Part shown: piece by piece, positions 3,567 through 51,673 of the stretch
How the letters are laid out: the number at the start of each line of letters is the position of its first letter
Numbering within the stretch: position 1 is the stretch's first letter
From: Candidatus Woesebacteria bacterium
GTDB taxonomy: Bacteria > Patescibacteriota > Microgenomatia > UBA1400 > MFAQ01
NCBI GenBank assembly: GCA_035389185.1
Contig: DAOORK010000001.1
Span: 829,881 to 893,880 of the forward strand
DNA: 64,000 nt
Direction: 5' to 3'
Program-made: the position numbers and the translations under genes
Notes under the pieces: model-generated
Seen by the model: the letters and a program-made list of their open reading frames with translations, nothing else
Told to the model about the DNA's origin: nothing
Database searches by the model: none

Positions 3567-3628
3567 AGGAAACCTCCTTTTAAGGTGCGTTTTGGAGATA
3601 TTATACCCTATAAAGCAAGAGATAAAGA

Positions 3629-4897
3629 CTATTTATCTTGGAATAGAAAGTCGTTGGAAAGACTTGTGGAGTAGGTTTTTTGGTTGAACTGGATGGTTTG
3701 GGGAGAGGAAATCAGGCCATGTTGTTTGAGGATAGTGAGAGAGTATTTGACTTGAGAAACAGGAAGAGTATAAGAAAGATTGAGTTGGGACTGATTTTGG
3801 GCGGGAGTTGTAAGCCAAAAGCCAATCTCGGTAAAATTGTATTTTTGGGTGATGACGGGGCTGAGAGTGCCGGAGCTGGAAGCGAGATGAATGTTTTGAG
3901 CGGATTGGGGAATGTAAAAACGGAGATAGGTGATGTAGTCACCGCCATAGTGGAAAGGAGGATTGGGGTTGGATTCCGGAGAAGTATTGAAGAGATTGAT
4001 ACTGACATGGTGGGATATTTGATTATTGACGATCGAAATGGTGTGAGTTGTGTTGCGGGTGATGTAGGCGTTGGCTTTGTTGGCCCCAAGATTGGTTTCG
4101 ACTAGAAGATAAGTGTCGGGAGTGTTTGATTCCAGTTTGCCGGCGAAGTTTTGACTTTCGAGGAGATTTTGAAAGTCTTTGTTGGTGGAGTTTATGAGGA
4201 TGTTTTGGTTTGTTAGATCTTGATAAACAATTTGGACAAGGTGCATTTTTTTGGAGACGGGCAGGGATTGGATTTTTTTGACGAGAGCCGAGCCGACGGC
4301 AGTAAGGGCGTCTTTTTTTTGGGTGGAACCGGGGAAAAAATTGACTTCGGCTTTGCCTTGAAGAAATAAATAGAGATTGTCCGGGGTGAGGGTGGCTTGG
4401 TACTCGGGGACTTCGATACTGCCGACGGTGTTGAGAATTTTTTTGATAGTGGTGAGGTTAAGTAGAACAAGATTGTCGGGATTGATTTCACCTCCTTTTT
4501 CGAAAAACCAACGGAGAGTGATGGCGCAGGTGGGAAAGTCCGGTTCCCAATCGGCGTTGGATAACTGCCAAGTGCCATGCTGAAAGGCCTCTTGAATCGG
4601 GACGGGTGGAGTGACGAAGCCTCCTAGCTGACCGTCGGGAACATAGATATCTTGGAAGGAGACATCGAAACTGGGATAGTTGAGGATAATTTTGGCGTAC
4701 GAACCGACAAAGCCGCCATTGGCGCGCATCTCGGTGTCGTTGCCTAGAAGAACGAGGTAGGAGGTGGGCTGATTTTGACCTAAAAGATAGGGGGCAAAGG
4801 GCAAGAAGGGTTTGACGAAAAGAACCAGAGGAATAAGGCTAATAACGAATAGACTTAAAATGATAGACAAAACAGCATAGAGGCGGGAGTGCTTCAC
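3629..4897 (-). CDS. Membrane-anchored DUF4012-like protein
   Basis: 422-aa ORF with an N-terminal basic region plus a TM helix. The motif LLVLLGNDTEMRANGGFVGSYAKI resembles the conserved ELR(P/A)xGGFxGSYA block of DUF4012 proteins. The family name is from memory. Confidence 0.6.
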   Translation of the reverse strand: MKHSRLYAVLSIILSLFVISLIPLVLFVKPFLPFAPYLLGQNQPTSYLVLLGNDTEMRANGGFVGSYAKIILNYPSFDVSFQDIYVPDGQLGGFVTPPVPIQEAFQHGTWQLSNADWEPDFPTCAITLRWFFEKGGEINPDNLVLLNLTTIKKILNTVGSIEVPEYQATLTPDNLYLFLQGKAEVNFFPGSTQKKDALTAVGSALVKKIQSLPVSKKMHLVQIVYQDLTNQNILINSTNKDFQNLLESQNFAGKLESNTPDTYLLVETNLGANKANAYITRNTTHTISIVNNQISHHVSINLFNTSPESNPNPPFHYGGDYITYLRFYIPQSAQNIHLASSSGTLSPVITQKYNFTEIGFWLTTPAQNQSQLNLSYTLPVSQVKYSLTILKQHGLISSPQTIQFNQKTYSTSLSNDFLFQDK

Positions 4898-4918
4898 AAA
4901 ATAATTGTAAACTATAGT

Positions 4919-5590
4919 ATGGGGTTAAAAGAAAAATTACTATTGTCACCGCTTTATGACTGGTTTGGGAAGCGGTCATATGCCCAGTCTGGGGAAGACA
5001 TCATAGCTGATGTACTTTTGGGAAAGAAAAACAAAGGATATTATGTGGAGGTAGGTGCTTTTCATCCAAAGTTGTTTTCCAATACCTATTTGTTTTACAA
5101 AAGAGGATGGAGCGGCGTGTGTGTTGAGCCAAGACCAGAGGTGAAAGAGGAGTTTACCAAGGTGCGTCCACGGGACAGATTTGTGAGTATGGGAGTGGCA
5201 GAGAAAAAGGATGTTTTGGAGTACTGGGAGTTTGATGATGCGGCGGCGAATACCTTTTTGCCGGAGCAGGCAGAGAGAAATATAAAAGAGGCGGGGAGAA
5301 AATTGAAACGGAAAATAAATGCGGCGGTAATGCCCCTAAAAGACATTTTGGCAACGAGCGTGCCTGAAGAGGTAAAGATTGATCTGCTGTCGGTGGATGT
5401 TGAGGGAATGGATCTTGAGGTTTTGCGTTCGAATGATTGGAAAAAGTATCGGCCGAAGGTAGTGATTGGCGAGGACTTGGAGTTTGATTTTTTGAACCCC
5501 AAAAAATCTGAGGTAGTGAAGTATCTTTTGGGTTTGGGGTACAGACTGGCTGGGGTGACGCCATATAGTTTGGTATTTGTGGACAAATAA
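4919..5590 (+). CDS. FkbM-family SAM-dependent methyltransferase
   Basis: YAQSGEDIIADVLLG...GYYVEVGAFHP...SNTYLFYKRGWSGVCVEP is typical of Methyltransf_21 (FkbM). The ATG at 4919 is chosen to avoid overlap with the upstream gene; GTG at 4889 is an alternative. Confidence 0.75.
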   Translation: MGLKEKLLLSPLYDWFGKRSYAQSGEDIIADVLLGKKNKGYYVEVGAFHPKLFSNTYLFYKRGWSGVCVEPRPEVKEEFTKVRPRDRFVSMGVAEKKDVLEYWEFDDAAANTFLPEQAERNIKEAGRKLKRKINAAVMPLKDILATSVPEEVKIDLLSVDVEGMDLEVLRSNDWKKYRPKVVIGEDLEFDFLNPKKSEVVKYLLGLGYRLAGVTPYSLVFVDK

Positions 5591-5595
5591 ATTTT

Positions 5596-5852
5596 TCGTT
5601 CGCCATTATCCTTATATTGGCGACCGACTCATTCCGCGTCTCCTGCGGACGCGGCTGGTCTGCCTACTCACCCCGAAAATCCTGCCTTTCAGGCATGAAC
5701 CGTGCTTTTCGGGGTTCCGTAAGCTCGCATAAAGGATAAATGTCTCACAAATATTTATTTGTATGTCATTGGTGTTCGTTTTGCACGGCTTCCTCATAAG
5801 TTTTTTAAGTGAGGAGAAGGGGATGGAGTGGTAAAATAGACACACTAACTCA
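5596..5852 (+). ncRNA. Candidate structured 5' leader / cis-regulatory RNA upstream of the LysM-M23 peptidase gene
   Basis: A ~250-nt non-coding gap carries several strong local hairpins: TCGCCA..TGGCGA, CCGCGTC-TCCTGCG-GACGCGG, CCCCGAAAA[..TGCCTTTCAGGCA..]TTTTCGGGG, and a hairpin just before the RBS. The only ORF here (5612..5845, minus strand) looks spurious. Confidence 0.3.
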
Positions 5853-7013
5853 ATGGATAGACTAAAGTTATTTTTTTACGAGTGGGTTGCGGATTTTTTC
5901 AAATATTTGAGAATGTTGTTGTCGCATTTTGTTAAGAACTATTTATCTCCCAAGTTTGCAGTTTTTGAGATGTTTAAGTCCAATATGGTGGGCAAGATGT
6001 ATCAGCAAAGAGGCAAAAACGCGCAGCTTTTTGTGAATGCCACGATGGTAACAGTGATGGTTTTGGGAGTAGCTTTGGGTCCGTCTTTGGTAACCAATGA
6101 CTCGCAAACGCAGGCTGTGCTGGCAACAGGTTTTAGAAGTAAGTTTGCGTTCGCCGAAGAGGGTGTTGTGGCCGATGGAAGCAGAGTTTTGGGATTGTCA
6201 ACGGATACGCAAATGGTGGTAGACACCCTTACTCAGGTATCGGACAAACCAAGAGCAGATATTTTGGAGTACACAGTGATATCAGGAGATACACTAGCCT
6301 CGATTGCCAAGATGTTTGGAGTGGATATTGATTCAATAAAATGGCTTAACAAGGATGTAAGTGAAAAGAAATTGAAAGCCGGAACGGTGCTGAAGATTCC
6401 TCCAGTAACAGGAGTAATCCATGTGGTGAAGAGCGGTGAAACAATTTACTCGATTGCCAAAAAATACAACGTGTCAGCACAGGCAATTGTTGATTATCCG
6501 TTTAATGAATTTACCAATGATGAGACTTTTGCCCTAGCAATTGGTCAGCAATTGATTGTGCCTGACGGTGAGATGCCTGATGAGGTGATTAGTTCACCAA
6601 GAACCTACTTGGCAAACCAACTGACGCCAAATGCAGGAGCAGTCTCGGCTACAGGCAACTGGATCTGGCCGACTCAGGGAACGATCACTCAGTACTACAA
6701 GGCATGGCATAAGGGATTGGATATCGCCAATCATAGTGCGCCTTCTATCTTGGCGGCAGACTCAGGAACGGTAGTTGTGGCAGGCTGGACGGATAACACC
6801 GGATATGGAAATAGAGTGATGATTGACCATGGAAATGGTTACAAGACTTTGTATGCCCACATGAGTAAGATTGCCGTGGTGGTTGGGCAAACTGTGAGGC
6901 GCGGAGATGTAATTGGACAGATGGGATCTACCGGACGTTCAACGGGAACACACTTGCATTTTGAGGTTAGAACAACGGCAGGGAATAGAGATCCCTTGAG
7001 TCTTTTGAAATAA
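5853..7013 (+). CDS. LysM (x2)-M23 family metallopeptidase, murein DD-endopeptidase-like
   Basis: Two LysM motifs (YTVISGDTLASIAKMFGV..., HVVKSGETIYSIAKKYNV...) and an M23 core (GLDIANHSAPSILAADSGTVVVAGW...GYGNRVMIDHGNGYKTLYAHMS...GSTGRSTGTHLHFEV). An N-terminal TM segment is present. The exact start is uncertain. Confidence 0.85.
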   Translation: MDRLKLFFYEWVADFFKYLRMLLSHFVKNYLSPKFAVFEMFKSNMVGKMYQQRGKNAQLFVNATMVTVMVLGVALGPSLVTNDSQTQAVLATGFRSKFAFAEEGVVADGSRVLGLSTDTQMVVDTLTQVSDKPRADILEYTVISGDTLASIAKMFGVDIDSIKWLNKDVSEKKLKAGTVLKIPPVTGVIHVVKSGETIYSIAKKYNVSAQAIVDYPFNEFTNDETFALAIGQQLIVPDGEMPDEVISSPRTYLANQLTPNAGAVSATGNWIWPTQGTITQYYKAWHKGLDIANHSAPSILAADSGTVVVAGWTDNTGYGNRVMIDHGNGYKTLYAHMSKIAVVVGQTVRRGDVIGQMGSTGRSTGTHLHFEVRTTAGNRDPLSLLK

Positions 7014-9849: not shown

Positions 9850-9863
9850 CCTACAAGTTTGAA

Positions 9864-9890
9864 TCCCTCGGGAAACCGGGGGATTTTTTG
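9864..9890 (+). terminator. Rho-independent terminator (CCCTCGGGAAACCGGGGGA plus T-tract)
   Basis: Hairpin plus TTTTTTG. Confidence 0.6.
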
Positions 9891-9912
9891 TATCTAGTTA
9901 TGGCCTATATGA

Positions 9913-10795: not shown

Positions 10796-11866
10796 ATGGT
10801 TGATCAAGTAAAAATTATGGTACGCGGGGGAAACGGCGGAGCAGGAGCTGTATCTTTTCGACGTGAGAAATTTATTCCTAAAGGCGGTCCGGATGGCGGC
10901 GATGGCGGAAAAGGTGGTAACGTTTATCTTGTTACCGACCCCAATTTGTCGACTTTGCAGGATTTTGCCCACAATAAAAAATATGCTGCGGGAGATGGAG
11001 GCAAAGGTCATGGCAAAAAAATGTCCGGACCAAAAGGTGACGACATTATTATCAAAGTTCCGGTGGGTACCTCTATAAAAATGACCCGTTTGGCTTTGGA
11101 AACCGATGAAGAAAAAGATGTCCGTGTTCGTGGAATGAAACTAGGAGTTTTGGGAAAATTATTTCGCCAAGGACATATAGAAGGAGAAACTTGGCAATAT
11201 ATTGATTTGGATAAACCCGATATGAACTTGCGTATTGCTCGAGGGGGTAAAGGAGGACGAGGCAATGTACACTTTAAGGGTTCGAGCAGAACCACACCAA
11301 TGATCGCCGAGGATGGTCAGTTGGGAGAGTCTTTTGAAGTGGAGCTGGAACTGAAACTTTTGGCTGATGTGGGTTTGGTAGGTTTACCAAATGCGGGGAA
11401 ATCAACACTTTTGTCTGTGCTTTCCAATGCCAGACCAAAAGTGGCGGACTATGAATTTACGACCTTGGAACCCAATTTGGGAGTTTTGAAAGAAGGCGAT
11501 AAACATGTGGTAATTGCCGATATTCCCGGACTAATTGAAGGAGCCAGTGAAGGAAAAGGGCTGGGAATTAAATTTCTCAAACACATTGAAAGAACGAAGT
11601 TGTTGGTACATTTGGTGCCAGCAGGAGCTGAGGAACCGACGGGTATTTATTCGAAGTACCAGGCAATAAGAAAAGAGTTGAAGGAGTTTGGTGCCGGTTT
11701 GGAGGATAAAAAAGAAATTGTGATTTTGAGTAAGATTGACCTGATAGAAGAAAAAAAAGTGGCAGAAATTGTAAAGTTTTTTGCCAAGAAGAAAGTGAAA
11801 GTTTTGCCGATATCAGCGGCAACAGGTGAGGGGATAAAACAACTAAAAGGAATGATTATTAGCTAG
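10796..11866 (+). CDS. obg: GTPase Obg/CgtA
   Basis: N-terminal glycine-rich Obg fold (VDQVKIMVRGGNGGAGAVSFRREKFIPKGGPDGGDGGKGGNVYL) followed by a G domain (GLVGLPNAGKSTLL, DIPGLIEGA, NKID-like SKID). The ATG at 10796 lies 6 nt after a TGGTACAAT -10 box, so the mRNA is probably leaderless. Confidence 0.9.
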   Translation: MVDQVKIMVRGGNGGAGAVSFRREKFIPKGGPDGGDGGKGGNVYLVTDPNLSTLQDFAHNKKYAAGDGGKGHGKKMSGPKGDDIIIKVPVGTSIKMTRLALETDEEKDVRVRGMKLGVLGKLFRQGHIEGETWQYIDLDKPDMNLRIARGGKGGRGNVHFKGSSRTTPMIAEDGQLGESFEVELELKLLADVGLVGLPNAGKSTLLSVLSNARPKVADYEFTTLEPNLGVLKEGDKHVVIADIPGLIEGASEGKGLGIKFLKHIERTKLLVHLVPAGAEEPTGIYSKYQAIRKELKEFGAGLEDKKEIVILSKIDLIEEKKVAEIVKFFAKKKVKVLPISAATGEGIKQLKGMIIS

Positions 11867-35310: not shown

Positions 35311-35916
35311 GTGGAGATAAAAACAATATGGGGATACTTGAAAAATTCAACCGGTCTGGATCGGTTTTTGCTCGGAGTAATCATTGTTGGACTAGTAGTT
35401 TGTTCAATTAGCGTTTTTAGAGGCATTCTAATAAGCCGTCAGGTTCAAGTTGAGTATTTGAGTAACGGAGATGTGTCTTCCGGGAGTATAACGAAGGTAT
35501 ACGTGGATATTGAAGGGGCGGTAGTTTATCCGGGAGTCTATGAATTGAACCTCGGATCAAGAATTAAAGATGTTTTGGTGTTAGCGGGTGGTTTATCTGA
35601 AAGTGCTGATAGAGATTTTTGTGAAAAGAATATTAATATGGCAGAACAAATTAAAGATGGACAGAAGATTTATATCCCTTCTGGGGGAAATAGTGATGCC
35701 GATAGGGGGTATTTTGAGGCTAGTATTCAAAGTAAAAAGATTAGTATAAACACTGCAAGTATCAGTGAGTTGGATACCCTTTGGGGTATAGGTGAGTCTC
35801 GCGCCGAAAGTATTGTGAAAAATAGACCGTATCAATCGGTTGATGATTTGGTTACAAAAGGAGTATTGCCAAGTAGTATTCTGGAAAGAAATAGAGAGCT
35901 GTTGTCAGTTTTTTAA
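35311..35916 (+). CDS. comEA: Competence protein ComEA (DNA-binding helix-hairpin-helix)
   Basis: A TM anchor plus a C-terminal tandem HhH (SINTASISELDTLWGIGESRAESIVKNRPYQSVDDL). It lies immediately upstream of comEC. The start is uncertain: GTG at 35311 or TTG at 35338. Confidence 0.8.
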   Translation: MEIKTIWGYLKNSTGLDRFLLGVIIVGLVVCSISVFRGILISRQVQVEYLSNGDVSSGSITKVYVDIEGAVVYPGVYELNLGSRIKDVLVLAGGLSESADRDFCEKNINMAEQIKDGQKIYIPSGGNSDADRGYFEASIQSKKISINTASISELDTLWGIGESRAESIVKNRPYQSVDDLVTKGVLPSSILERNRELLSVF

Positions 35917-35918
35917 AT

Positions 35919-37034
35919 ATGAGAAGGAGAGTATTTTTTCTCCTGGTGATACTAATCTTTAGATTTATTCTAGGGTGGTTGGAGAGTACCAAGTATAGCC
36001 AAAATGCAGTTATAAAAGTTACGGGAAATATATACAAGATAGATCATAATGATACAAAATGTGTCATTAGAATAGGTGACATTTTTGTTGATCCCCGCAA
36101 AGACTGTTTCTTTTCACAAGGGGATAAGGTAGAGATAATTGGCAGAGTGAGGAGGGGTGTGATAGACAATATTTTGGGAAGAATATGGCTTGACAGCGCG
36201 GAAATAGTGGTTTTTGATAAAGAGGAAGATAAGCCAGATGAACCAGGGGTAATTGAAGCAGTACTGATTAAGTTTCGTGAAAAGATGCTGTCTCGCTACC
36301 GTATGCATTTACCTGAGCCTGAGTCGAGCCTGGTTGCGGGAATAATTTTGGGATACAAAAAAGATATAGGGCGAGAATTTTACGACAAAATGATAAAGAG
36401 CGGTACGATACACATCGCTGTTGCTTCAGGATACAACATTATGTTGGTAGGGGGAACGACATTATCTATTTGTCTGTGGTTTTTGAAGAGAAAAAAGGCA
36501 ACGATAGTCTCGATTTTTTTAATGGCTGTTTATGCTTTGGAAGCTGGAGGTGAGCCTCCTGTGGTAAGGGCGGTGATTATGGGGATAGTGGTCTTTTTGG
36601 CTGCCTGTATCGGCAGAAAAGTAATCTCTTGGTGGATTCTTTTGGTTACTGGCTGGTTGATGGTGATTATTGAACCCTTGTTATTGCTTGACGTAAGTTT
36701 TCAGCTATCTATGGCGGCAAGCGTGGGTTTGATGATAGTTGAGCCATGTTTGAGAAAGAAGATAGAGAATTGGGATCGGAGATTGTCTGAGTTGGTGTCT
36801 GGTTCGGGGATCTTGAGTTCAGTATCGACTATGGCAATGACAGTGCCAATTATTTGGTACCAGTTTGGGAGAATGAGTCTGATTGGTATATTAAGTAATA
36901 CTTTGATATTACCGTTTGTGCCATTGTTGATGATCTTGGGGGCGGGTATGCAGATTCTTCCGAGATTGTTTTTTTGGCCAACCTACATAATGGCGCACTG
37001 GATTGTGGGGGTGATTGAGTTTTTTGGAATGTAA
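35919..37034 (+). CDS. comEC: ComEC/Rec2 N-terminal part (DUF4131 plus competence membrane domain)
   Basis: The polytopic competence domain (LVAGIILGYKKDIG...TIHIAVASGYNIMLVGG...) ends at a TAA 8 nt before the MBL-domain ORF. Confidence 0.8.
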   Translation: MRRRVFFLLVILIFRFILGWLESTKYSQNAVIKVTGNIYKIDHNDTKCVIRIGDIFVDPRKDCFFSQGDKVEIIGRVRRGVIDNILGRIWLDSAEIVVFDKEEDKPDEPGVIEAVLIKFREKMLSRYRMHLPEPESSLVAGIILGYKKDIGREFYDKMIKSGTIHIAVASGYNIMLVGGTTLSICLWFLKRKKATIVSIFLMAVYALEAGGEPPVVRAVIMGIVVFLAACIGRKVISWWILLVTGWLMVIIEPLLLLDVSFQLSMAASVGLMIVEPCLRKKIENWDRRLSELVSGSGILSSVSTMAMTVPIIWYQFGRMSLIGILSNTLILPFVPLLMILGAGMQILPRLFFWPTYIMAHWIVGVIEFFGM

Positions 37035-37042
37035 GATGAAGT

Positions 37043-37819
37043 GTGAGCTGGAAAAAATGGGGAGTTATATTGATTTTGCTAAGCTTGCTGTGGCTCTGGC
37101 AACAGTGGCCTGACGGGAAGCTACACGTAGCTTTTTGCGACGTGGGCCAGGGAGATGGAGCACTGGTCGCTTTGGGAGCATTTCAAGCCTTGATAGACAC
37201 CGGCCCCAGCGAGGAGAAACTGTGGCAGTGTTTAACAAAAGAGATGCCCTTTTGGGATAGAAAGATTGACCTAGTTTTTATTAGCCACCAACAATCAGAC
37301 CACAGTGGGGCGCTTGCCGATCTTTTAAAAAGATATCAAGTATCTAAGTTGATCCAAAATGCAGAACAAAATGATGTCTATCGATATGGTGATTTGTATT
37401 TCGATATATTAAGTGAGGTGCAGAAAGATAAGATTGGGGAAACGAGTACCTCAAAAGAAGAGAATGAGTTGGCCATGGTGATAAGACTAGAATATCGAGA
37501 GTTTTCGGCGTTGTTTACGGCAGACATTGGGGAAAAGACAGAATCAGCACTGTTGGCAGATGGAGTGCTAAAAAAGGTGACACTATTAAAAGTTCCGCAT
37601 CACGGGTCAAAATACAGTTCGACGTTATCATTTTTAGAAGCTTTGAGCCCAAGGGTGGCGGTTATTTCGGTTGGAGCCAAAAACAGTTATGGTCATCCTC
37701 ATGGAGATACTTTGATGCGTTTAGATTCTATTGGAGCAGAAGTATTGCGGACGGACCAAGTGGGGACTGTGGAGATAGTTACGGATGGATATAGGTTTGA
37801 TATTTACAATGAGAGGTAA
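37043..37819 (+). CDS. comEC: ComEC C-terminal metallo-beta-lactamase domain, as a separate ORF (GTG start, different frame)
   Basis: VAFCDVGQGDGALV ... FISHQQSDHSGAL ... KVPHHGSKYSS are MBL-fold motifs. It begins with the last TM helix expected for ComEC. This is either a split gene or a frameshift. Confidence 0.75.
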   Translation: MSWKKWGVILILLSLLWLWQQWPDGKLHVAFCDVGQGDGALVALGAFQALIDTGPSEEKLWQCLTKEMPFWDRKIDLVFISHQQSDHSGALADLLKRYQVSKLIQNAEQNDVYRYGDLYFDILSEVQKDKIGETSTSKEENELAMVIRLEYREFSALFTADIGEKTESALLADGVLKKVTLLKVPHHGSKYSSTLSFLEALSPRVAVISVGAKNSYGHPHGDTLMRLDSIGAEVLRTDQVGTVEIVTDGYRFDIYNER

Positions 37820-38085: not shown

Positions 38086-38360
38086 TAAAAGAGACAAGGG
38101 GCGAGGTGAGGAACCAAGCCCCTTTTCTTTATTTAAAAATAATTTACGTTTCTTCCGTACTAATCCATTGGAAAAACCGAACGCTCTTTCGCCTGCGCGA
38201 AAGCCGTTCTTTCTATCAGCAAAATTTTCTTGAGTACAAGAAACCAGGCAATTTTACTTTGCGCGATATTTTTCCAATTGGACTAGTACTCCAAAACAAT
38301 TATTTTTATATATTTCACCAAGCTGTCGCAAAGGGGTTTTGTAGGCAGTACAATTGACAC

Positions 38361-43770: not shown

Positions 43771-44289
43771 TTAGGGATTGACGATGTGGTAGTCAATATA
43801 ACGGATTGTGTCAGATGGCTCTTGAGCCATGATGGTGAAACTGCCATTTGTTTTGGATAGGAGCGAGTAGACAGATTTATCTCCCGGCCGAGGTGAAAGG
43901 TATATTTGACTCGACTCGGATACGTCGGTGTCGGAGATCATAATTTCGGTGGCGCCGGCTTCGATGACAGCTACTTTGTCGACGATGTTACTTCCTGGAG
44001 TTGAAGATATTTCTGAATTTGCAGACTGGGTTGCGTCGTTGGGGGCGGCGATTATGGCTTGGTTGTTTACTTCTTCAGGGTTGGTAGTAGGCGTGGGTGT
44101 CGGAGCGGTTTGGCTAAGCGTTCCTTGGGGAAGCGGAGAGATGAGACTGCCGGTGGGTTGGGAAGAGTAATAGCCAAGAATAATAAGAGTTGTGGGGATG
44201 AAGAAGAGGGCGCTGGCTGTGATCACAATAGCCGTAGCCACGGAAGAGTGGTTTTTGGGAGTGCTGGCGTTTGAAAATTCAATAATCAC
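43771..44289 (-). CDS. Membrane-anchored hypothetical protein (GTG start, leaderless-like TATACT box 7 nt upstream)
   Basis: 172 aa with an N-terminal TM helix and a Thr/Pro-rich linker. Confidence 0.6.
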   Translation of the reverse strand: MIIEFSNASTPKNHSSVATAIVITASALFFIPTTLIILGYYSSQPTGSLISPLPQGTLSQTAPTPTPTTNPEEVNNQAIIAAPNDATQSANSEISSTPGSNIVDKVAVIEAGATEIMISDTDVSESSQIYLSPRPGDKSVYSLLSKTNGSFTIMAQEPSDTIRYIDYHIVNP

Positions 44290-44347
44290 TAATAGTAGTA
44301 TATTCCATTTGGAGTATTTTTTCCAAAAATTGTCAATATTTTTTTCT

Positions 44348-44523
44348 ATTCCTTGGTCTTGTTGTTTTTGAGATGACTTATCACCCCGGTTCTTTGTTGG
44401 CCACCGATAATTTATCGCTTCCAGCGAGCGATAATTATCTCGATACTCGACACGAAATCCGCACTAGGCGGACCAAGCATTTCGTGTCTGCGTAGCGTGG
44501 CACAAAGTACCAGGGTTCACGTC
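44348..44523 (+). ncRNA. Candidate structured RNA, copy A (paralog of 49396..49571), upstream of dprA
   Basis: The conserved ends GACTTATCACCC...TCTTTGTTGGCCA and AGCGTGGCACAAAG.ACCA.GGGTTCACGTC enclose two long hairpins (P2 GATAATTTATCGC/GCGATAATTATC; P3 CGACACGAAAT[CCGC-ACTAG-GCGG]ACCAAGCATTTCGTGTC). In copy B both hairpins have different sequence but keep their pairing (covariation). Confidence 0.5.
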
Positions 44524-44550
44524 ATGTGACAAAACAATTATTATTATTTT

Positions 44551-45396
44551 ATGGAATTGCCCAAGGAAAAGTGGAGCGAGAATTTGAAACTCATTAAGCC
44601 AAAGTTGGAGAGGGTTTTGTATAAGGGGAATATCGATTTGCTTTTGGATCAGGCGCCGAAGCTCGCTATTGTGGGTAGCAGAAGGATGACGGATTATGGC
44701 CAAAGGGTAATTGAAAAATGGATGAGTCTGTTGGTGCAAAAAGGAATTACGATTGTGTCGGGATTTATGTACGGGGTAGATCAGGCGGCACATCAGGCCT
44801 GTTTGGAAAATGGCGGTAAAACAATTGCGGTGCTGGGCTGGGGAATTGATGCAAAAGTGTCGTCTGATGACGAAAAACTGTACCAGAAAATATTAGAAGT
44901 TGGTAGTTTGATAGTGTCAGAATACGAAGGAACATATCCGGCAGACAAGTGGACATTTCCCGCAAGAAACAGAATTGTGGCCGGAATAGCGGACGCTGTC
45001 TTGGTAGTGGAAGCGGCGGAAAGATCGGGAAGTTTGATTACTGCCAGATTAGCCAAGAAGTTCGGAAAAACGTTGATGGCTGTACCGGGATGGGTGACGA
45101 GCGGAGCGGCGGAAGGAACAAATAATTTAATAAAAAACGGCAAGGCAGTGATGGTAACTTCGGCGGAAGATGTTCTTGAAGTAATGGGACTCGGTAGAGG
45201 TCAGATGAAAATAAGTTTTTCTAATAGATCTTCGAACTGTCCGATATTGGAAGTACTGGAAGGGGGAGAAAAAAGCGCCGATGAACTGGCACGGATATTA
45301 AAAATGCCGATATCGAAGCTCATGGAGGAGATTTTGATGATGGAATTAGAGGGTCTTGTAGAGGAAAAATCGGGAAAGTATTTTCAAAGGAAATAA
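44551..45396 (+). CDS. dprA: DNA processing protein A (DprA/Smf)
   Basis: Rossmann-like DprA core: LAIVGSRRMTDYGQRV...IVSGFMYGVDQAAHQACL...GGKTIAVLGWGID...RNRIVAGIADAVLVVEAAERSGSLITA. Confidence 0.85.
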   Translation: MELPKEKWSENLKLIKPKLERVLYKGNIDLLLDQAPKLAIVGSRRMTDYGQRVIEKWMSLLVQKGITIVSGFMYGVDQAAHQACLENGGKTIAVLGWGIDAKVSSDDEKLYQKILEVGSLIVSEYEGTYPADKWTFPARNRIVAGIADAVLVVEAAERSGSLITARLAKKFGKTLMAVPGWVTSGAAEGTNNLIKNGKAVMVTSAEDVLEVMGLGRGQMKISFSNRSSNCPILEVLEGGEKSADELARILKMPISKLMEEILMMELEGLVEEKSGKYFQRK

Positions 45397-45425
45397 AAAA
45401 CCCGGCTTGCGGCCGGGTGATGGGT
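45397..45425. terminator. Bidirectional terminator hairpin CCCGGC-TTGC-GGCCGGG; identical copy at 45912..45940
   Basis: AAAAACCCGGCTTGCGGCCGGGTG is flanked by A- and T-tracts. It serves convergent dprA (+) and 45425..45868 (-). Confidence 0.55.
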
Positions 45426-45868
45426 TATTCTTCGATGAACTTGATGCTTTTGATGACGATGATATTGGTGTAGAGAATCCTTTTATTGGTATCGAGGAAC
45501 TGAATTTCGATAATGTCTAGAGGTTTCAGGGTGCAGATTTTGCTGGGAGGATACTCATAACGGAAGCTGACGCCGTTGATAAAGACACGAAGGATATCGA
45601 TGGGACGACCATCAAGAAAAGTGAAGAATTCGGTGCTGTCTTCTGTTCGAACATCCAGTTTGACAAAATGGGCGATATTTTTTATGACGACGCGATCGTT
45701 GACAATGTATTCCGAGTCTCCCTTGAGGCTGATGGAAGAAACATCAAAACGATGATTTTTATCATAAGTGGTAGGAAGGGTGGCTCCTTTATGGTCAGGA
45801 TCTCCTTCTTTGGTGATGTTGGAGTAGTTTACGAAATTGACACATGCAATTGTTTTATCCATATCCAT
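45425..45868 (-). CDS. Hypothetical protein
   Basis: 147 aa. Its upstream leader is TATAAT-N12-ACCTTAAACC...GAAAGG, almost identical to the cassettes at 922-960, 1925-1960 and 3567-3600. Confidence 0.6.
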   Translation of the reverse strand: MDMDKTIACVNFVNYSNITKEGDPDHKGATLPTTYDKNHRFDVSSISLKGDSEYIVNDRVVIKNIAHFVKLDVRTEDSTEFFTFLDGRPIDILRVFINGVSFRYEYPPSKICTLKPLDIIEIQFLDTNKRILYTNIIVIKSIKFIEE

Positions 45869-45911
45869 CCTTTCTCGTGGTTTAAGGTGCTTTGGGGGGA
45901 ATTATATCAAA

Positions 45912-45940
45912 AAACCCGGCTTGCGGCCGGGTGTGAGCTT
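45912..45940 (-). terminator. Second copy of the CCCGGCTTGCGGCCGGG terminator hairpin
   Basis: Identical 26-nt sequence to the hairpin at 45397..45425. It lies downstream of the stop of CDS 45944..46402 (minus strand). Confidence 0.5.
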
Positions 45941-45943
45941 AGG

Positions 45944-46402
45944 CTATTTGAGTTTACTGGTTAGTTCGTTCAGAACAGAGAGAATTCCACCATTGTCAGT
46001 ATTCGTGTCAGCTTGGTAATCGAGATGTTTGGTAATGGCTTTAATGAGCCGTTTTTCTTCTTTATCATCGACCATATTTACTAATGACGTAATGGCGAGA
46101 TAATAAGAATGCTCATCAAGTGCCATGTCGGTACTGATGTCATCAGTCGCAATTCTAAAGAGAAAATCTTTGATTTGTGGCGGGATCGGTTTGACAGTGA
46201 GTTTTCCTAACAATTCGATGACGTTGTCAAAGTTTTCTTTGGACATCTCGTAAAAATCGGTATTTTCCATCACGTCTTTTAGGATATGAAGATAGTTTTC
46301 GATTTTTAATTGGTTTAGCTGTTCGGAAAAGAACTTCACTAGTTCAGGTTGGACGGTGATGGCGGTATTGGATACTGTAGTAGAGTTGTTGGCCTTTGCC
46401 AT
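45944..46402 (-). CDS. Hypothetical protein
   Basis: 152 aa. Its leader is TAGAAT-N12-TCTTTAATTTCGTTCCCAAAGGAG upstream of the ATG. Its promoter is divergent to that of comM. Confidence 0.6.
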   Translation of the reverse strand: MAKANNSTTVSNTAITVQPELVKFFSEQLNQLKIENYLHILKDVMENTDFYEMSKENFDNVIELLGKLTVKPIPPQIKDFLFRIATDDISTDMALDEHSYYLAITSLVNMVDDKEEKRLIKAITKHLDYQADTNTDNGGILSVLNELTSKLK

Positions 46403-46482
46403 TATTTCTCCTTTGGGAACGAAATTAAAGAACTTGGCTCTGTATTCTACAACACTAAAGTAAGATAGTATACTTTTTCTAT

Positions 46483-48003
46483 ATGCTTGCCTGTATAAGA
46501 AGTGCGGCCTGTGTGGGACTTCAGAGTTTCTCGGTGGATGTGGAGGTAGACGTGGCGGATAAAGGGTTTCCCGGGTTTAGTATCGTAGGTCTGCCGGACA
46601 AGGCGGTCGGCGAGGCTCGAGAAAGAGTCAGGACGGCCTTAGTGAATAGCAGTTTTGCTTTTCCGCAAAAGAAAATTACGGTTAATTTGGCGCCGGCTGA
46701 CTTACCCAAAGAGGGCTCGGCTTTTGATTTGCCGATTGCCTTGGGAATACTGTTGGCAAATGGAGATATGGAGACAAATGAAGATGGTCTATTTTTTGGG
46801 GAGTTGTCTTTAGATGGGACACTGCGTCACACCAAGGGGGCACTTCTTTTGGCTTTGTTTGCCAAAGAACAAGGAGTTGAAAAAATATTTGTACCGATTG
46901 AGTCGGCCAATGAGGCCGCGGTAGTCAACGGTGTGCAAGTGATACCGGTTCGATGTTTAAAAGATTTGGTGAGTCATTTGGCGGGAATGAAGATGATTCC
47001 ACCATTAAAAGAAATTGCAATAAAAGCCTTGGTGGAGAAGGCAGCACCAGAATTTGAGTGGTCGGAGATTGTGGGGCAGGAGACGGCCAAGAGGGCTCTA
47101 ACTATCGCCGCGGCTGGAGGACACAATATCTTGATGTCTGGTCCACCAGGATCGGGAAAGACGATGTTGTCACGAGCTTTGCCAGGAATAATGCCGGAGA
47201 TGACTGAAGAAGAAACGATGGAAGTGACAAAGATTTACTCAGCGGCAGGATTATTGGAAGCTGGAGAGGCGATTGTGAGACGTCGACCATTTCGCTCACC
47301 CCATCACTCAACCAGTTTGGCTGGGTTAATTGGGGGAGGAAGTCATCCAACACCGGGGGAAGTGAGTCTGGCCCACCTGGGAGTGCTGTTTTTGGACGAG
47401 ATGGCAGAGTTTCCGAGATTTGTGCTTGAAGGTATGAGACAGCCAATGGAGGATGGGAAGGTGGAGATTTCTCGAGCCTTGGGGAGAATAACTTATCCTG
47501 CCTCATTTCAATTGGTAGCCGCGGTGAACCCTTGTCAGTGTGGTTATTTGGGTCACCCAACTCACGAATGCAAGTGCACGGTAAGGGATATAGAGAGGTA
47601 TAAAAGACGGATAAGCGGGCCAATTTTGGATCGGATAGACTTGCATATAAATGTGCCGGCGGTAGAGATGGAGAAGATCGTTGGGGTGGTACCCAAGGGA
47701 GAAAACTCATTTGTAATAAGAGAAAGGGTAGAGAAAGCGAGAAAAATCCAGAGTGAAAGATTGTTAAAGTTTGGGATTTTTTGTAACGCTCAGATGAAAA
47801 ATAAACAAGTAAAGGAGTACTGCCGGCTTGATCCTGGAGGAGTACGGGTATTAAGGATGGCGATGGAGAAGTTTGATCTGTCTGCCAGATCGTATTTCAG
47901 AGTTTTGAAAGTGGCTCGAACGATTGCGGATTTGGAGGGTAGTAAGGATATTTTGTCGGTGCATTTGGCCGAGGCATTGCAGTACAGGGAGAGAGTATTT
48001 TGA
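46483..48003 (+). CDS. comM: YifB/ComM-family Mg-chelatase-like AAA+ ATPase (competence protein ComM)
   Basis: N-terminal Lon-like/ChlI domain (FSVDVEVDV...GFPGFSIVGLPDKAVGEARERV), Walker A SGPPGSGKTM, and a C-terminal Mg-chelatase-like helical domain. Confidence 0.85.
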   Translation: MLACIRSAACVGLQSFSVDVEVDVADKGFPGFSIVGLPDKAVGEARERVRTALVNSSFAFPQKKITVNLAPADLPKEGSAFDLPIALGILLANGDMETNEDGLFFGELSLDGTLRHTKGALLLALFAKEQGVEKIFVPIESANEAAVVNGVQVIPVRCLKDLVSHLAGMKMIPPLKEIAIKALVEKAAPEFEWSEIVGQETAKRALTIAAAGGHNILMSGPPGSGKTMLSRALPGIMPEMTEEETMEVTKIYSAAGLLEAGEAIVRRRPFRSPHHSTSLAGLIGGGSHPTPGEVSLAHLGVLFLDEMAEFPRFVLEGMRQPMEDGKVEISRALGRITYPASFQLVAAVNPCQCGYLGHPTHECKCTVRDIERYKRRISGPILDRIDLHINVPAVEMEKIVGVVPKGENSFVIRERVEKARKIQSERLLKFGIFCNAQMKNKQVKEYCRLDPGGVRVLRMAMEKFDLSARSYFRVLKVARTIADLEGSKDILSVHLAEALQYRERVF

Positions 48004-48087
48004 ATGTTGTCCTATATTGTGGTAGAATAGCGCACAAAAGAACCTTAATACTATAGATATTGGACTAAGTCCAAAGAAGGAGAATAA

Positions 48088-48969
48088 ATGTCAACTGGTT
48101 TAGGTTTGGTGACGATTCAGGGTTGTTTGAATGAGGGAGAAAAAATTGCCGGACTGAGTGCAAAAAAATGGTCGAGTGACGAGAACAGTTTGCAGTATTT
48201 TGCAGAAAAGTTTGTTCCCGATCGTTCTGCCCTTGATCTTATTGATAAGGAAAGTCTGCGCTCGTTTGCTACCTGTCTTCACCCCGAGATTATTGCCAAG
48301 ATGAAGGAATGGGAGATGCGTCTAGACCAGATTCCCGATGGCGGTTCGGCATCAATCTACATGATTTCCCAGCTCAGGGAAATGATGAAATGGATGGAAA
48401 CCGGGAAAAGAGTCGATAATCGTCGTCAGTGGCCGGAGTTTATTTTGAAGAATGTGGAGTTTCTGGGTACTGGCCAGGATCCTTTTACCGGAGTTGTGGT
48501 CAAAGTGCCGGTTGAAGGTGGTGACACAGTCTATCTTTACCGATGCCCTCAGAGCGTTGATGATGAACTTGATCTACTGCAGTTTGTTGTTGAGGGTATT
48601 GAGTCGGAGATGTTTGATATTGTGCCTCCTTTGGATTACAAAGGGGTACAGATTCCCTGTATCTATGCAGATCTCGAGTCGAAACTGGAATGGATCTTGG
48701 GTATGAAGAACGGCGATTATTTTATTTCTTACGCCCAACAGAAGATTCTTTTTGGTATGAATCAGATTGGTTTTGCGGTGCGAGAAGAAACGGCAATGGC
48801 CATGACAAGAGGCATTCACGTTGAGTCGCCGCCATACATCTTGTCACCAAATGGGGAGTCGTTTTTGTTTTGGAGACGGCGACCGGGAGTATTTAGCCCG
48901 ATCTCTATCTTCCAGTTTACTAAGGATGATTTCAAAGACCCTGGTGACTTGAACAAAATTGTTGAATAG
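48088..48969 (+). CDS. Hypothetical protein
   Basis: 293 aa with a strong RBS AAGGAG. The leader cassette is TAGAAT-N13-ACCTTAATAC. It is followed by a CCCTCGGGAAACCGGGGG terminator. Confidence 0.65.
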   Translation: MSTGLGLVTIQGCLNEGEKIAGLSAKKWSSDENSLQYFAEKFVPDRSALDLIDKESLRSFATCLHPEIIAKMKEWEMRLDQIPDGGSASIYMISQLREMMKWMETGKRVDNRRQWPEFILKNVEFLGTGQDPFTGVVVKVPVEGGDTVYLYRCPQSVDDELDLLQFVVEGIESEMFDIVPPLDYKGVQIPCIYADLESKLEWILGMKNGDYFISYAQQKILFGMNQIGFAVREETAMAMTRGIHVESPPYILSPNGESFLFWRRRPGVFSPISIFQFTKDDFKDPGDLNKIVE

Positions 48970-48977
48970 ATCTTTGC

Positions 48978-49006
48978 CCTCGGGAAACCGGGGGCTTTTT
49001 TGTGGG
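48978..49006 (+). terminator. Rho-independent terminator (CCCTCGGGAAACCGGGGGC plus T-tract)
   Basis: Same hairpin family as the lipoprotein-gene terminators. Confidence 0.55.
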
Positions 49007-49018
49007 ATACTGAAATTA

Positions 49019-49378
49019 GTGAAAAGTCAAAATAAAATCACCGGAAATATAGGGGAGGAACTGGCGACAGAGTACCTAGAGAAAAAAGGTTACAAGATAA
49101 AAGAGCGCAACTTCCGTACTCGTTTTGGGGAGATAGATATTATTTGTTGGGACGGGAAAATATTGGTATTTGTGGAAGTAAAAACAAAAATTGGGCATGA
49201 TTTTGGAGAGCCGGAGGAAATGGTCAATAAAAGTAAGATTGGTAAGGTCAAAAAGATGGGGGAAGTATATTTACAGGACAAGGGCTTGGACGTTCTTTGT
49301 CGGGTTGACGTGGTGGCAATTGTGATGCAAAATAGCGAGTCGGTTGAGCGAATAGAACATTACCAAGCATTGTACTAA
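49019..49378 (+). CDS. yraN: YraN-family (UPF0102) endonuclease
   Basis: GNIGEELATEYLEKKGYKIKERNFRTRFGEIDIICWDG..LVFVEVKTK matches the UPF0102 signature. A GTG start at 49019 is assumed, because the ORF's 5' extension runs through the terminator. Confidence 0.7.
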   Translation: MKSQNKITGNIGEELATEYLEKKGYKIKERNFRTRFGEIDIICWDGKILVFVEVKTKIGHDFGEPEEMVNKSKIGKVKKMGEVYLQDKGLDVLCRVDVVAIVMQNSESVERIEHYQALY

Positions 49379-49395
49379 CTGTCGGAAACAATTTT

Positions 49396-49571
49396 CCTAA
49401 TTCCTGTCGTCTCTGTATTGGACTTATCACCCTATTTCTTTGTTGGCCAGCGATAATTCAGATTCTCCTGCGGAATCTGATTATCTCGATTCTCGACTTA
49501 AATTCCGCCTCAAAGGCGGACCAAGCAATTTAAGTCTGCGAAGCGTGGCACAAAGAACAAGGGTTCACGTC
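49396..49571 (+). ncRNA. Candidate structured RNA, copy B, upstream of ndk
   Basis: The ends and junctions match copy A. P2 is GATAATTCAGATTC/GAATCTGATTATC and P3 is CGACTTAAATT[CCGCC-TCAAA-GGCGG]ACCAAGCAATTTAAGTC, with compensatory changes that preserve pairing. Confidence 0.5.
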
Positions 49572-49652
49572 CAAACGAGAAAGGACTACGGACTTTATGT
49601 TTCGGGAAACTAATCCATAATTATTTACGTCAATACAGTAAAATAAGGAGAT

Positions 49653-50126: not shown

Positions 50127-50191
50127 AATTGTTTATAGCCCTCCAGAAATGGGGGGCTTTTTGATGTTTTTCAGGGTAAAATAGGAGTGTT

Positions 50192-50241
50192 CGGGGTGTA
50201 GTGAATCGGTATCATGGTCGCCTAAGGCGACAGACATAGGC
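50192..50241 (+). pseudogene. tRNA-like fragment 1: 5' half of tRNA-Pro with a palindrome at the anticodon-arm position
   Basis: CGGGGTGTAGTGAATCGGTATCA is identical to the 5' half of the tRNA-Pro at 50320, then comes GGTCGCCTAAGGCGAC (a 6-bp stem with a 3-nt loop). There is no T-arm or 3' acceptor. Confidence 0.45.
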
Positions 50242-50253
50242 AAAAATAAATAT

Positions 50254-50303
50254 CGGGGTATAGCGCAGATGGTATCACGGTCGCCTAAGGCGATAGGCCT
50301 CAA
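50254..50303 (+). pseudogene. tRNA-like fragment 2: a different tRNA 5' half (CGGGGTATAGCGCAGATGGTA) fused to the same palindrome
   Basis: ...GGTATCACGGTCGCCTAAGGCGAT...; no complete cloverleaf. Confidence 0.4.
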
Positions 50304-50319
50304 GTTATAATATTTATAC

Positions 50320-50391
50320 CGGGGTGTAGTGAATCGGTATCACGCTTCGTTCGGGACGAAGAGACAGGCGGTCCAATTCCGCCCACCCCGA
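50320..50391 (+). tRNA. tRNA-Pro (anticodon CGG)
   Basis: Acceptor CGGGGUG/CACCCCG, D-arm GUGAAUCGGUAUCAC, anticodon arm CUUCG-UUCGGGA-CGAAG (identical to the E. coli tRNA-Pro CGG arm), and T-arm GGCGG-UCCAAUU-CCGCC, which is an atypical T-loop. Confidence 0.7.
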
Positions 50392-50393
50392 CA

Positions 50394-50645
50394 ATGTATA
50401 CGACTTATGTGTTACAAAGTCTAAAAAACGGAAGACTGTATATTGGATCAACAAATAATCTTTCCAGAAGACTGAGTGAACACAATTCAGGTCAATCAAC
50501 TTATACTAAGTCAACAAGACCTTATGTTTTGGTGTATTCAGAAGAATTTTTAACTCGAACTGAAGCGGTAAGAAGGGAACTTGCTTTAAAAACTGGTCAA
50601 GGAAGGCTTTGGTTAAAAAACAATATTAGTATCACGGTCGCCTGA
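50394..50645 (+). CDS. GIY-YIG domain endonuclease (small, homing-endonuclease-like)
   Basis: YVLQSLKNGRLYIGSTNNLSRRLSEHNSG carries the GIY...YIG...R...E..N motifs. It begins 2 nt after tRNA-Pro, and its stop codon lies inside the palindrome of tRNA-like fragment 3. Confidence 0.75.
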   Translation: MYTTYVLQSLKNGRLYIGSTNNLSRRLSEHNSGQSTYTKSTRPYVLVYSEEFLTRTEAVRRELALKTGQGRLWLKNNISITVA

Positions 50646-50681
50646 GGCGACAGACAGGCGGTCCAATTCCGCCCACCCCGA
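50629..50681 (+). pseudogene. tRNA-like fragment 3: the 3' two-thirds of tRNA-Pro with the palindrome in place of the anticodon arm
   Basis: GTATCACGGTCGCCTGAGGCGACAGACAGGCGGTCCAATTCCGCCCACCCCGA. The 3' 31 nt are identical to the tRNA-Pro at 50320, and it is followed by a T-tract. Confidence 0.45.
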
Positions 50682-50763
50682 CTTTTTGGTTAGCGGTTGT
50701 GGTATGAGAGCTTGGGTATGATAGAATCCTCATACAAGATCGTTGACAATCAAAGGAGGCAGA

Positions 50764-51292: not shown

Positions 51293-51502
51293 TTAGGCGG
51301 GGTTTTGTTTTTTAAGAAGATAATTGATACTATCTTCACGGTCAAGTATCCCTTGAACATAATTTAGACAACGATGACATGTTGATGCTGGATACCCGTG
51401 ATGGTCTTCTTTGATATGAAAAGCAAGATCCTCTTTAAATTTGAGGAGATCCGATCTGTATTCAGCGAGCAGATCGTTGATGGTTTCTGTTTTTTCTGTC
51501 AT
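51293..51502 (-). CDS. Small hypothetical protein
   Basis: 70 aa from the ATG at 51502, with AAGGA 7 nt upstream. It has HxxxxH and CxxC motifs (HHGYPASTCHRC). Confidence 0.45.
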   Translation of the reverse strand: MTEKTETINDLLAEYRSDLLKFKEDLAFHIKEDHHGYPASTCHRCLNYVQGILDREDSINYLLKKQNPA

Positions 51503-51529
51503 TTTATCGTCCTTGGATATCAAATTTGT

Positions 51530-51596
51530 GCTCGAGTGCTCTGGGCAGAGTCGAACTGCCGACCTGTCGCCTAAGGCGACTGCTCTATCAATTTAT
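51530..51596 (-). pseudogene. Truncated tRNA-Arg-like copy with the GTCGCCTAAGGCGAC palindrome replacing the anticodon arm
   Basis: It shares GATAGAGCAG and CAGGTCGGCAGTTCGACTCTGCCCA with the adjacent tRNA-Arg. The 5' acceptor and D-stem are missing. Confidence 0.45.
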
Positions 51597-51673
51597 TGGT
51601 GAGGTTGGGCAGAGTCGAACTGCCGACCTGCTCGTTAGGAGTGAGCTGCTCTATCCATCTGAGCTACAACCTC
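51597..51673 (-). tRNA. tRNA-Arg (anticodon CCU), CCA encoded
   Basis: Acceptor GAGGUUG/CAACCUC-A-CCA, D-arm GCUCAGAUGGAUAGAGC, anticodon loop CUCCUAA, T-arm GGCAG-UUCGACU-CUGCC. Confidence 0.75.

Follow-up and report, generated by a model that had tools for sequence, protein, structure and literature searches.

The 64,000-nt stretch of a Candidatus Woesebacteria genome analysed here (contig DAOORK010000001.1, positions 829,881 to 893,880 of the forward strand; hereafter the window) carries, upstream of dprA and ndk, two copies (A and B) of a folded element. They are members of a family of palindromic repeats that is dispersed over intergenic regions in Collierbacteria/Woesebacteria-like bacteria of the candidate phyla radiation (CPR). 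The members of this family share a branched fold that is kept by compensated sequence changes, they lie on one strand with respect to base composition, and their distribution is patchy, with copies present at some sites, missing from the corresponding sites of relatives and at times nested in one another. [quoted passage not shown]

A sequence-only reading of this DNA had proposed two paralogous structured elements of about 150 nt, each directly 5' of a gene on the + strand. Both are located where it had placed them and are homologous, being 83% identical over 150 aligned nt plus flanks. The conserved motifs that it quoted (GACTTATCACCC, TTCTTTGTTGGCCA, AGCGTGGCACAAAG, GGGTTCACGTC and ACCAAGC) are all found in A and in B, and the end motifs occur without mismatch at only two sites of the window, those of A and B. 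Pfam confirms the downstream genes as dprA (PF02481, E = 2.9e-63) and ndk (PF00334, E = 2.2e-48), the start codons of which lie 27 nt and 81 nt, respectively, 3' of the element cores. The length of about 150 nt holds for the core of the element; the true unit is longer, as every copy has an additional outer stem, P0. Likewise, the two copies are real, yet the window contains at least four. The features of copies A and B are:

44361..44538, + strand: full hairpin of copy A (P0 plus core) in the minimum-energy fold; core at 44375-44523 by covariance models
44406..44439, + strand: hairpin P2 of copy A, with outer stem GATAATT/AATTATC, a bulged T and a variable inner stem; conserved loop TCCAGCG at 44421-44427
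44444..44494, + strand: hairpin P3 of copy A, with an irregular base helix and a variable terminal loop; conserved internal loop ACCAAGC on the 3' side at 44472-44478
44551..45396, + strand: dprA, the gene downstream of copy A
49382..49606, + strand: full hairpin of copy B; core at 49421-49571
49452-49485, + strand: hairpin P2 of copy B; loop TCCTGCG at 49466-49472
49520-49526, + strand: ACCAAGC of copy B, internal loop of P3
49653..50126, + strand: ndk, the gene downstream of copy B

Copies A and B fold with energies of -57.1 kcal/mol (z = -5.4 relative to dinucleotide shuffles) and -55.6 kcal/mol (z = -6.1), and both adopt the three-way junction that had been suggested for them; the reverse strands fold equally well (z ~ -6.25). 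The differences between the two copies in P2 and P3 are fully compensated, as had been claimed, and the inner stem of P2 is swapped between copies with full compensation. Across the family, the full units measure 136-236 nt in folds and are built, from the outside inward, of P0, an internal loop, helix P1, the three-way junction and the hairpins P2 and P3, so that the closing stem (P0 and P1) carries the junction with its two hairpins. While P0 is present in every member, its sequence varies between copies and differs between A, B, E, G and the remaining subfamilies. The internal loop inside P0 is asymmetric in A-like copies, its 5' side being CUUAUCA and its 3' side UUCACG. Conservation is found in the junction motif of the family, TTGGCNACCGA, in the P2 loop CC[U/A]GC, which is invariant in the 12 aligned members and accompanied by a bulged U in P2, in the internal loop of P3 (ACCNNGC), which reads [A/U]-C-C-N-N-G-C in 13 of the 15 members in a condensed alignment, and in UGCG within the strand joining P3 to P1. 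The sister copies C and D terminate in a 12-nt inverted repeat, TCATTTCAATTT / AAATTGAAATGA.

To delineate the family, covariance model R1 was built from A, B and two further copies, C and E; the second model, R2, picks up each of the 15 members at 64-158 bits. The sequence-only reading had recommended a search of this type. Run on the window and on related loci, it brought the family to 15 copies on seven contigs, four of these copies being in the window. Divergent members are missed by the default speed filters and appear only when these are switched off. Copies C and D (locus L005) and E (L006) came from an exact-pattern scan of public metagenome contigs, and syntenic loci of relatives, gathered via homologues of DprA and the M23 peptidase, contributed G and K (L007), H (L020), I, J and N (L016), and O and P (L026). 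Copy A scores 160.4 bits with R1 and 127.9 bits with R2, copy B 172.2 bits with R1. The two remaining copies of the window are divergent:

5563..5764, + strand: copy F, core at 5594-5751 (R1 58.7 bits, E = 1.8e-13; R2 82.1 bits)
38130..38312, + strand: copy M, core at 38149-38296 (R1 35.6 bits, E = 2.2e-07, filters off; R2 71.6 bits)

The neighbours of copy F are, by Pfam, a methyltransferase gene (4889-5590) on its 5' side and an M23 peptidase gene (5853-7013) on its 3' side, and the 5' arm of its outer stem overlaps the final codons and the stop codon of the methyltransferase gene. Copy M, the subfamily of which is also present in L007 and L016, ends its core 64 nt 5' of the start of an M16 peptidase gene (38361). 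In genomes that carry the family, spacing is approximately one element per 15-20 kb. No copy was found in loci L013-L015, which comprise ~45 kb of syntenic DNA and encode a DprA with 75% identity, nor in loci L021, L022 and L028. Similarly, the element was not found in viral contigs by pattern scan or in phages and plasmids by blastn, and a scan of representative genomes with the 3' end motif returned two matches, in metagenome-assembled genomes (MAGs) of Proteobacteria and Verrucomicrobiota, both of which lack the remainder of the element. The comparison with Rfam that had been advised was also made: Rfam 15 reports only five tRNAs in the whole window at the gathering threshold, and the region of copy A (44250-44650) yields mere noise at E <= 10 (E = 3.5-8.3, with scores far below the gathering scores), so the element has no Rfam family at these settings. 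Given that literature searches, too, found no description of the element, the family appears to be undescribed.

The fold of the family is supported by extensive compensation. Since a MAFFT alignment of 12 members was structurally inconsistent, we used alignments made with the covariance models; the 15-sequence alignment was fitted to the model and is therefore biased towards the structure. In a MAFFT-based comparison of four sequences, 20 of 54 pairs are doubly changed and none is changed on one side only. With all 15 sequences, 94.8% of 787 cells form standard pairs, compared to 32-48% when the 3' partners are slid by 1-3 columns, and 45 of the 54 pairs differ on both sides. Doubly changed cells number 263, whereas shuffles give 81 +/- 7, and the observed values are not attained in any of 500 shuffles. 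Helices 5 and 6 of P3 pair in 96.9% and 95.1% of cells. The earlier claim that the fold is kept by compensated changes, rather than belonging to a decaying repeat, now stands on 15 sequences and far above chance.

The pairs themselves are almost exclusively of the Watson-Crick type. For the 54 consensus pairs we counted 735 Watson-Crick, 2 G-U and 10 A-C cells, plus 9 G-U cells closing the P2 loop, while G-U pairs amount to ~5% in folds of the tRNAs of the window. Minimum-energy folds of either element strand use G-U pairs to equal extents, mostly in the outer stem, and the core helices have no excess of G-U over A-C, hence neither strand is marked as RNA. If selection acted on an RNA fold alone, G-U pairs would be tolerated and expected to be commoner than the near-absence observed here. 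The scarcity of wobble pairs therefore suggests that complementarity is needed on both DNA strands or in a DNA hairpin, or that it might be restored by templated correction from arm to arm. Structure-supporting covariation is expected alike for an RNA and for a DNA hairpin, and the practical lesson is that covariation by itself is no proof of action as RNA.

All 15 copies are located on the G-rich strand of their own contig, with L005 being too short for a reliable skew; the GC skew of the long contigs is +0.18 to +0.32. In 8-kb windows along the analysed stretch and the related loci, the skew is uniform (+0.14 to +0.32), irrespective of gene strand. This strong and uniform skew matches the genome-wide strand disparity, possibly reflecting unidirectional replication, that has been reported for Collierbacteria and their relatives (PMC7143001). 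In addition, all 15 copies, representing ~11 independent loci, point at the next downstream gene, and 13 of them stop 19-186 nt before its start; the two more distant ones are P (~230 nt before obg) and O (~720 nt before rho). Given that ~60% of genes are co-oriented with the G-rich strand, 15 of 15 exceeds the ~0.6^11 expected from strand polarity alone, and proximity to genes seems to be real. The downstream genes have no function in common: they include dprA, ndk, genes for M16 and M23 peptidases, the Lactamase_B part of comEC, thrS, mreB, rho, obg and small open reading frames (ORFs).

Sequence features around the start codons bear on whether the element would be transcribed with these genes. 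Many genes of the window lack a Shine-Dalgarno sequence and show, at 6-8 nt from the start codon on its 5' side, a -10-like box, often TGnTAnnAT (for example, the starts at 38361, 53763 and 40548 and, on the - strand, 34323 and 52361), which suggests that the mRNAs of many window genes are leaderless or nearly so. Such boxes also occur next to element-associated genes: the M16 peptidase gene has TACAAT 6 nt 5' of its ATG, TGgTAGAAT precedes mreB in L016, and dprA is preceded by TTCACG-17-TATTAT (44516-44544), a weak match to the consensus that ends 6 nt before the ATG. Judging by these consensus matches, -10-like boxes lie between element and start codon, and the element is therefore probably situated upstream of the promoter and outside the mRNA. 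The conserved TTCAC(G) was considered as a -35 box and rejected, because it fits copy A and none of the other three copies of the window. In terminator scans, none of the four window copies is followed by a terminator, the sole terminator-like match being inside copy M; folds with flanking sequence revealed no apparent stem sequestering a Shine-Dalgarno sequence; and the 45 nt upstream of the copies show no conserved promoter. Just upstream of copy M, at ~38100-38135, a hairpin that leads into a T-rich stretch resembles a terminator by eye and is not listed by the terminator scan. The sequence-only reading had implied an RNA of the 5'-leader or small RNA (sRNA) type, and this view is weakened by the unrelated genes, the probable -10-like boxes 3' of the element and the near-zero use of G-U pairs.

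Several unrelated genes have a leader of a different type, in which the motif (A/C)GCACCTTAAA is followed by GGAG at ~10-20 nt before the start. Sites are present in the window at ~922-966, 1918-1962, 3567-3611 and 45869-45913 (- strand) and within 19700-20325 of L007, each with a TATAAT-like box ~30 nt upstream. The GCACCTTAAA motif may be a common element of 5' untranslated regions.

Comparison of syntenic sites revealed that the element comes and goes between related genomes. In this lineage, comEC is split into separate ORFs for the Competence domain and the Lactamase_B domain. In the window genome, 8 nt separate the two ORFs and their junction holds no element (...GGAATG TAA GATG...), and L007 carries a 187-nt insert at this exact site, flanked by TAA on both sides (L007 3335-3524 compared to L003 ~2481); L020 contains an internally deleted remnant of an F-like element, that is, of a different subfamily. 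The yraN-ndk spacer measures 16-24 nt in L007, L020 and L013-L015, as opposed to 274 nt in the window (copy B) and 368 nt in L016 (copy J). Upstream of mreB, 17 nt in L013 and L015 contrast with ~200 nt in L016 (copy N), and the spacer upstream of the M23 peptidase gene is 66-124 nt long in L022, L026 and L028, compared to 263 nt in the window, where copy F is present. An element precedes dprA in four genomes and belongs to three subfamilies (A and H; I; K), and the K type precedes other genes in the window (M) and in L016 (N). The idea that P0 derives from an inverted target copy was rejected, given that both P0 arms of the L007 insert lie within the inserted DNA.

Copies are also nested, truncated and recombined. 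Element P lies within a J-like element, the two halves of which flank it, and an isolated 3' fragment is found at ~14140-14200 of L016. A conserved stretch of 60-75 nt (...ACTCATTGTCAAAA.A.ACTAAATG.CAAACGGAAAGAGAAA...) follows I (L016 ~9850-9905) and P (L026 ~11495-11555), two unrelated loci of one MAG, in both cases seemingly within J-like remnants; the duplicated unit around I and P may be composite. In copy D, ~135 nt of foreign DNA are joined within P2. This DNA starts with TAAGAGCTTGCTC (L005 ~255-345 and 60-85, read on the - strand), an inverted copy of which is located ~60 nt downstream of copy D, and the arrangement looks like a rearrangement, related to an insertion sequence (IS), at the P2 loop of D. 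Stem types are exchanged as modules: A, B, C and E between them show all four combinations of the P2 and P3 types, O combines P2 of H with P3 of C, and the near-identical I and P differ almost only by a fully compensated 6-bp block beside the P2 loop. Together, patchy presence, nesting, fragments and reshuffling typify a repeat that is dispersed, recombines and is probably mobile.

A match to a MITE with terminal inverted repeats and target-site duplications had been named as evidence against a selected structure, and part of this picture is indeed found, namely site polymorphism, one pair of TAA flanks, nesting, truncations and the inverted repeat of C and D; conserved ends and a consistent target-site duplication are not. 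With MITEs the family shares multiple copies and insertion polymorphism between related genomes, and each of its copies has a closing stem, P0, of variable sequence. It likewise resembles the MITE-like Correia/CREE repeats of Neisseria, ERIC/IRU of enterobacteria, and RUP and BOX of pneumococci, which are imperfect intergenic palindromes of 100-200 nt with insertion polymorphism between relatives and a position close to promoters; compensated arm changes are reported for some of these. In contrast, the ends of the element are not conserved, a target-site duplication was seen once only, copies keep strictly to one orientation, a branched tip carries conserved loops, and no parent insertion sequence is known. 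REPINs and REP-BIMEs, which are mobilised by RAYT (Y1 HUH) transposases, are similarly non-coding, intergenic, palindromic, multi-copy and persistent in their lineages; they form hairpins in single-stranded DNA or RNA, are mosaics of modules, and lack classical terminal inverted repeats and target-site duplications. However, a REPIN is a doublet of 20-40-nt REPs, whereas the element has a three-way junction with two unlike hairpins in 136-236 nt, the GTAG/CGTC tag is not visible in its alignment, and no RAYT was found, the sole nearby Y1 gene being an ordinary IS200 copy. On the favoured reading, the family is near REPIN- and MITE-type elements and, falling under neither definition, is a distinct variant.

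This Y1 transposase gene (Y1_Tnp, PF01797), which is located beside C and D in L005, was considered as a partner. It belongs to an independent segment of 607 nt that is 95.7% identical to L029, and no element is present within flanks of up to 10 kb in L029, L034 and L035, which encode a 99% identical Y1 protein. A 68-nt piece of the foreign DNA in copy D is 92.6% identical to DNA located ~250 nt downstream of the transposase gene in L029, and we therefore consider the adjacency in L005 a secondary event. A link to the IS200-type transposase was rejected, because its gene resides on a separate IS-like segment that occurs elsewhere without the element. The palindrome-associated transposable elements (PATEs) derived from IS200/IS605 also depend on hairpins in single-stranded DNA and lack terminal inverted repeats and target-site duplications, and they show an orientation bias relative to replication. 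The element differs in that its two hairpins are unlike each other, its 5' and 3' ends pair together and a conserved cleavage tetranucleotide was not identified; the hairpin-like sequences by tnpA of L005 do not resemble P2 or P3 as judged by eye, with the IS ends not being formally defined.

Two other classes of folded nucleic acids offer partial parallels. Integron attC sites, and other recombination substrates of folded single-stranded DNA, conserve structure rather than sequence, with an unpaired centre, bulges and a variable, sometimes branched tip, and only one of their strands is active. However, the RYYYAAC/GTTRRRY core sites of attC are not seen in the element sequences, no integrase is among the Pfam results for the neighbouring genes, and the flanks are syntenic core genes instead of cassettes. 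Riboswitch-like and leader RNA motifs share with the element a three-way junction, conserved nucleotides in junctions and loops, strong covariation and a co-oriented position 5' of genes; the element, in contrast, has no Rfam match, no common gene function and no expression platform, its helices are very long, near-perfect and free of wobble pairs, and it is probably located upstream of promoters. Likenesses to hammerhead and twister ribozymes, T-box, retron non-coding RNA (ncRNA), attC, ssoA CS-6 and the IncP nick site, as judged by eye from their consensus sequences, all failed when applied to the whole family.

As a non-autonomous and probably mobile repeat, the family would work mainly at the DNA level. 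The G-rich strand, which on the usual interpretation of GC skew serves as the lagging-strand template, would be the one that folds when single-stranded, and a putative trans-acting protein could recognize the fold by its shape and conserved loops. Copies would be gained, lost, nested and recombined just upstream of promoters, and always in one orientation. Effects on neighbouring genes would be secondary and might consist of insulation from upstream transcription or an altered -35 or upstream promoter region. Several points weigh against this interpretation. An element is found before dprA in four genomes in which DprA is 78-80% identical, which may reflect a conserved host function, and the uniform pointing at the downstream gene exceeds what strand polarity would give and suits a gene-linked role. 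A three-way junction with conserved junction and loop nucleotides is typical of functional RNAs, and the scarcity of G-U pairs could equally stem from templated correction of quasi-palindromes, whatever their function. Among the attributes of mobile elements, the P0 ends are not conserved in sequence across subfamilies, the TAA duplication comes from one comparison, with none around C, D or upstream of mreB, and the pattern of presence and absence is not polarised by phylogeny into gain or loss. No enzyme partner was found either; a transposase with matching ends was not seen in the window or in the relatives' loci (<= ~21 kb).

The strongest competitor, possible though doubtful in our view, is a structured RNA. 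Here, transcription of the + strand would start at an upstream promoter or result from read-through, and the junction would act in cis on the gene or transcript, for instance as a leader that binds a protein or a ligand, as a site of RNase III-type processing or as a stabiliser; otherwise, the element would be a small ncRNA in its own right. The overwhelming covariation, the conserved loops and junctions, the co-orientation of all copies with the next gene at mostly short distance (13 of 15) and the retention of an element before dprA despite strong sequence divergence all suit this explanation, and covariance models score the + strand with 160-172 bits, compared to 16-18 bits for the - strand, a preference that arises because the conserved loops are asymmetric. 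It accords less well with the core helices, which have almost no G-U pairs and no asymmetry of G-U versus A-C, or with neighbour genes that lack a functional theme; neither the terminator scans of the window copies nor the folds with flanks gave an expression platform. The -10-like boxes would leave the element outside several of the mRNAs, the absence of a conserved promoter in the 45 nt upstream counts against an independent sRNA gene, and both the terminator-like hairpin seen by eye directly upstream of copy M and the nesting, fragments and presence/absence variation add to these objections. We consider it somewhat unlikely that the family represents a novel, UBA1400-specific (Collierbacteria-like) class of folded nucleic acids with a function, be it a structured RNA with a conserved junction core serving many unrelated genes or a single-stranded DNA signal on the lagging-strand template of a chromosome with possibly unidirectional replication; in either case, the hypervariable yet complementary stem blocks would give each copy an identity of its own.

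Less probable again is a DNA element that is kept by the host rather than selfish and that serves replication or chromosome organization in a lineage that may replicate unidirectionally. It could be a priming or assembly signal on the lagging-strand template, a binding site for a structure-specific protein or an insulator upstream of promoters. The strict polarity towards the G-rich strand in all contigs and the strand disparity of the lineage (PMC7143001) would fit such a role, as would helices of pure Watson-Crick pairs, which are expected where both DNA strands or a DNA hairpin matter, the occurrence of about one copy per 15-20 kb in carrier genomes, and the position just upstream of probable promoters. 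However, the element is absent from the ~45 kb of syntenic DNA in L013-L015, and an essential host signal would not readily explain nested or truncated copies or the coexistence of several subfamilies. We also know of no priming or binding signal with this architecture. Finally, a decaying duplication or a chance likeness of two intergenic stretches has nothing in its favour beyond the fact that two copies had been seen initially; it is refuted by covariance-model E-values of 1e-13 to 1e-46 and by the number of doubly changed cells among the 15 members from seven contigs, and we regard its probability as negligible.

Other features of the window and the related loci concern tRNA genes, competence genes and small ORFs. 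At 50190-50690, a mosaic of tRNA pieces surrounds an ORF for a GIY-YIG endonuclease (50394-50645, PF01541). It includes a complete tRNA-Pro(CGG) (50320-50392), the first 23 nt of which recur with 100% identity at 50192-50214 and the last 31 nt of which recur at 50652-50682, and three copies of a 28-mer resembling an anticodon arm. This region looks like a homing-endonuclease cassette that is inserted in, or duplicates, a tRNA gene; group I introns in tRNA genes of Patescibacteria are reportedly the subject of a published paper. At 51545-51673 (- strand), tRNA-Arg(CCT) is directly followed by a partial second tRNA with the same T-arm, and at ~985-1150 of L005 (- strand) the orthologous tRNA-Arg apparently lies inside a tRNA-like gene with the halves GGTTCTGGTAGCTCAGATGG... 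and ...GGTTCGAATCCGCCCCAGAAC, where ARAGORN calls the inner tRNA only. Adjoining the tRNA-Arg gene is a conserved ORF of 73-76 amino acids (51293-51523, - strand; L005 542-763, - strand) with the motif H..E(E/D)DH...P.S.CH.C.N, the L005 copy of which has no Pfam match. A competence-type cluster comprising comEA, comEC, dprA, comM and yraN is distributed over 35311-37819 (L003 761-3269), 44551-45396, 46483-48003 and 48959-49378. Two 100% identical stretches of 25 nt, AAAAAACCCGGCTTGCGGCCGGGTG, each with a GC-rich inverted repeat (45395-45419 and 45909-45933), bracket an ORF of 147 amino acids without Pfam match (45425-45868, - strand); this ORF and its neighbour of 152 amino acids vary between related loci.

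Genomes of CPR bacteria (Patescibacteria) are tiny, and repeats and regulators are usually said to be scarce in them. In these organisms, a family of repeats that possibly accounts for ~1% of the genome, as extrapolated from four copies in 64 kb, would therefore be unexpected. The family maintains an elaborate, branched fold through dozens of compensated changes, lies in a single orientation just upstream of genes and is strictly aligned with the unusual, genome-wide strand asymmetry of its lineage. If mobile, it would point to an unrecognised, structure-dependent mobilisation system; if functional, it would constitute a new motif, either RNA or DNA, of organisms not yet amenable to culture.

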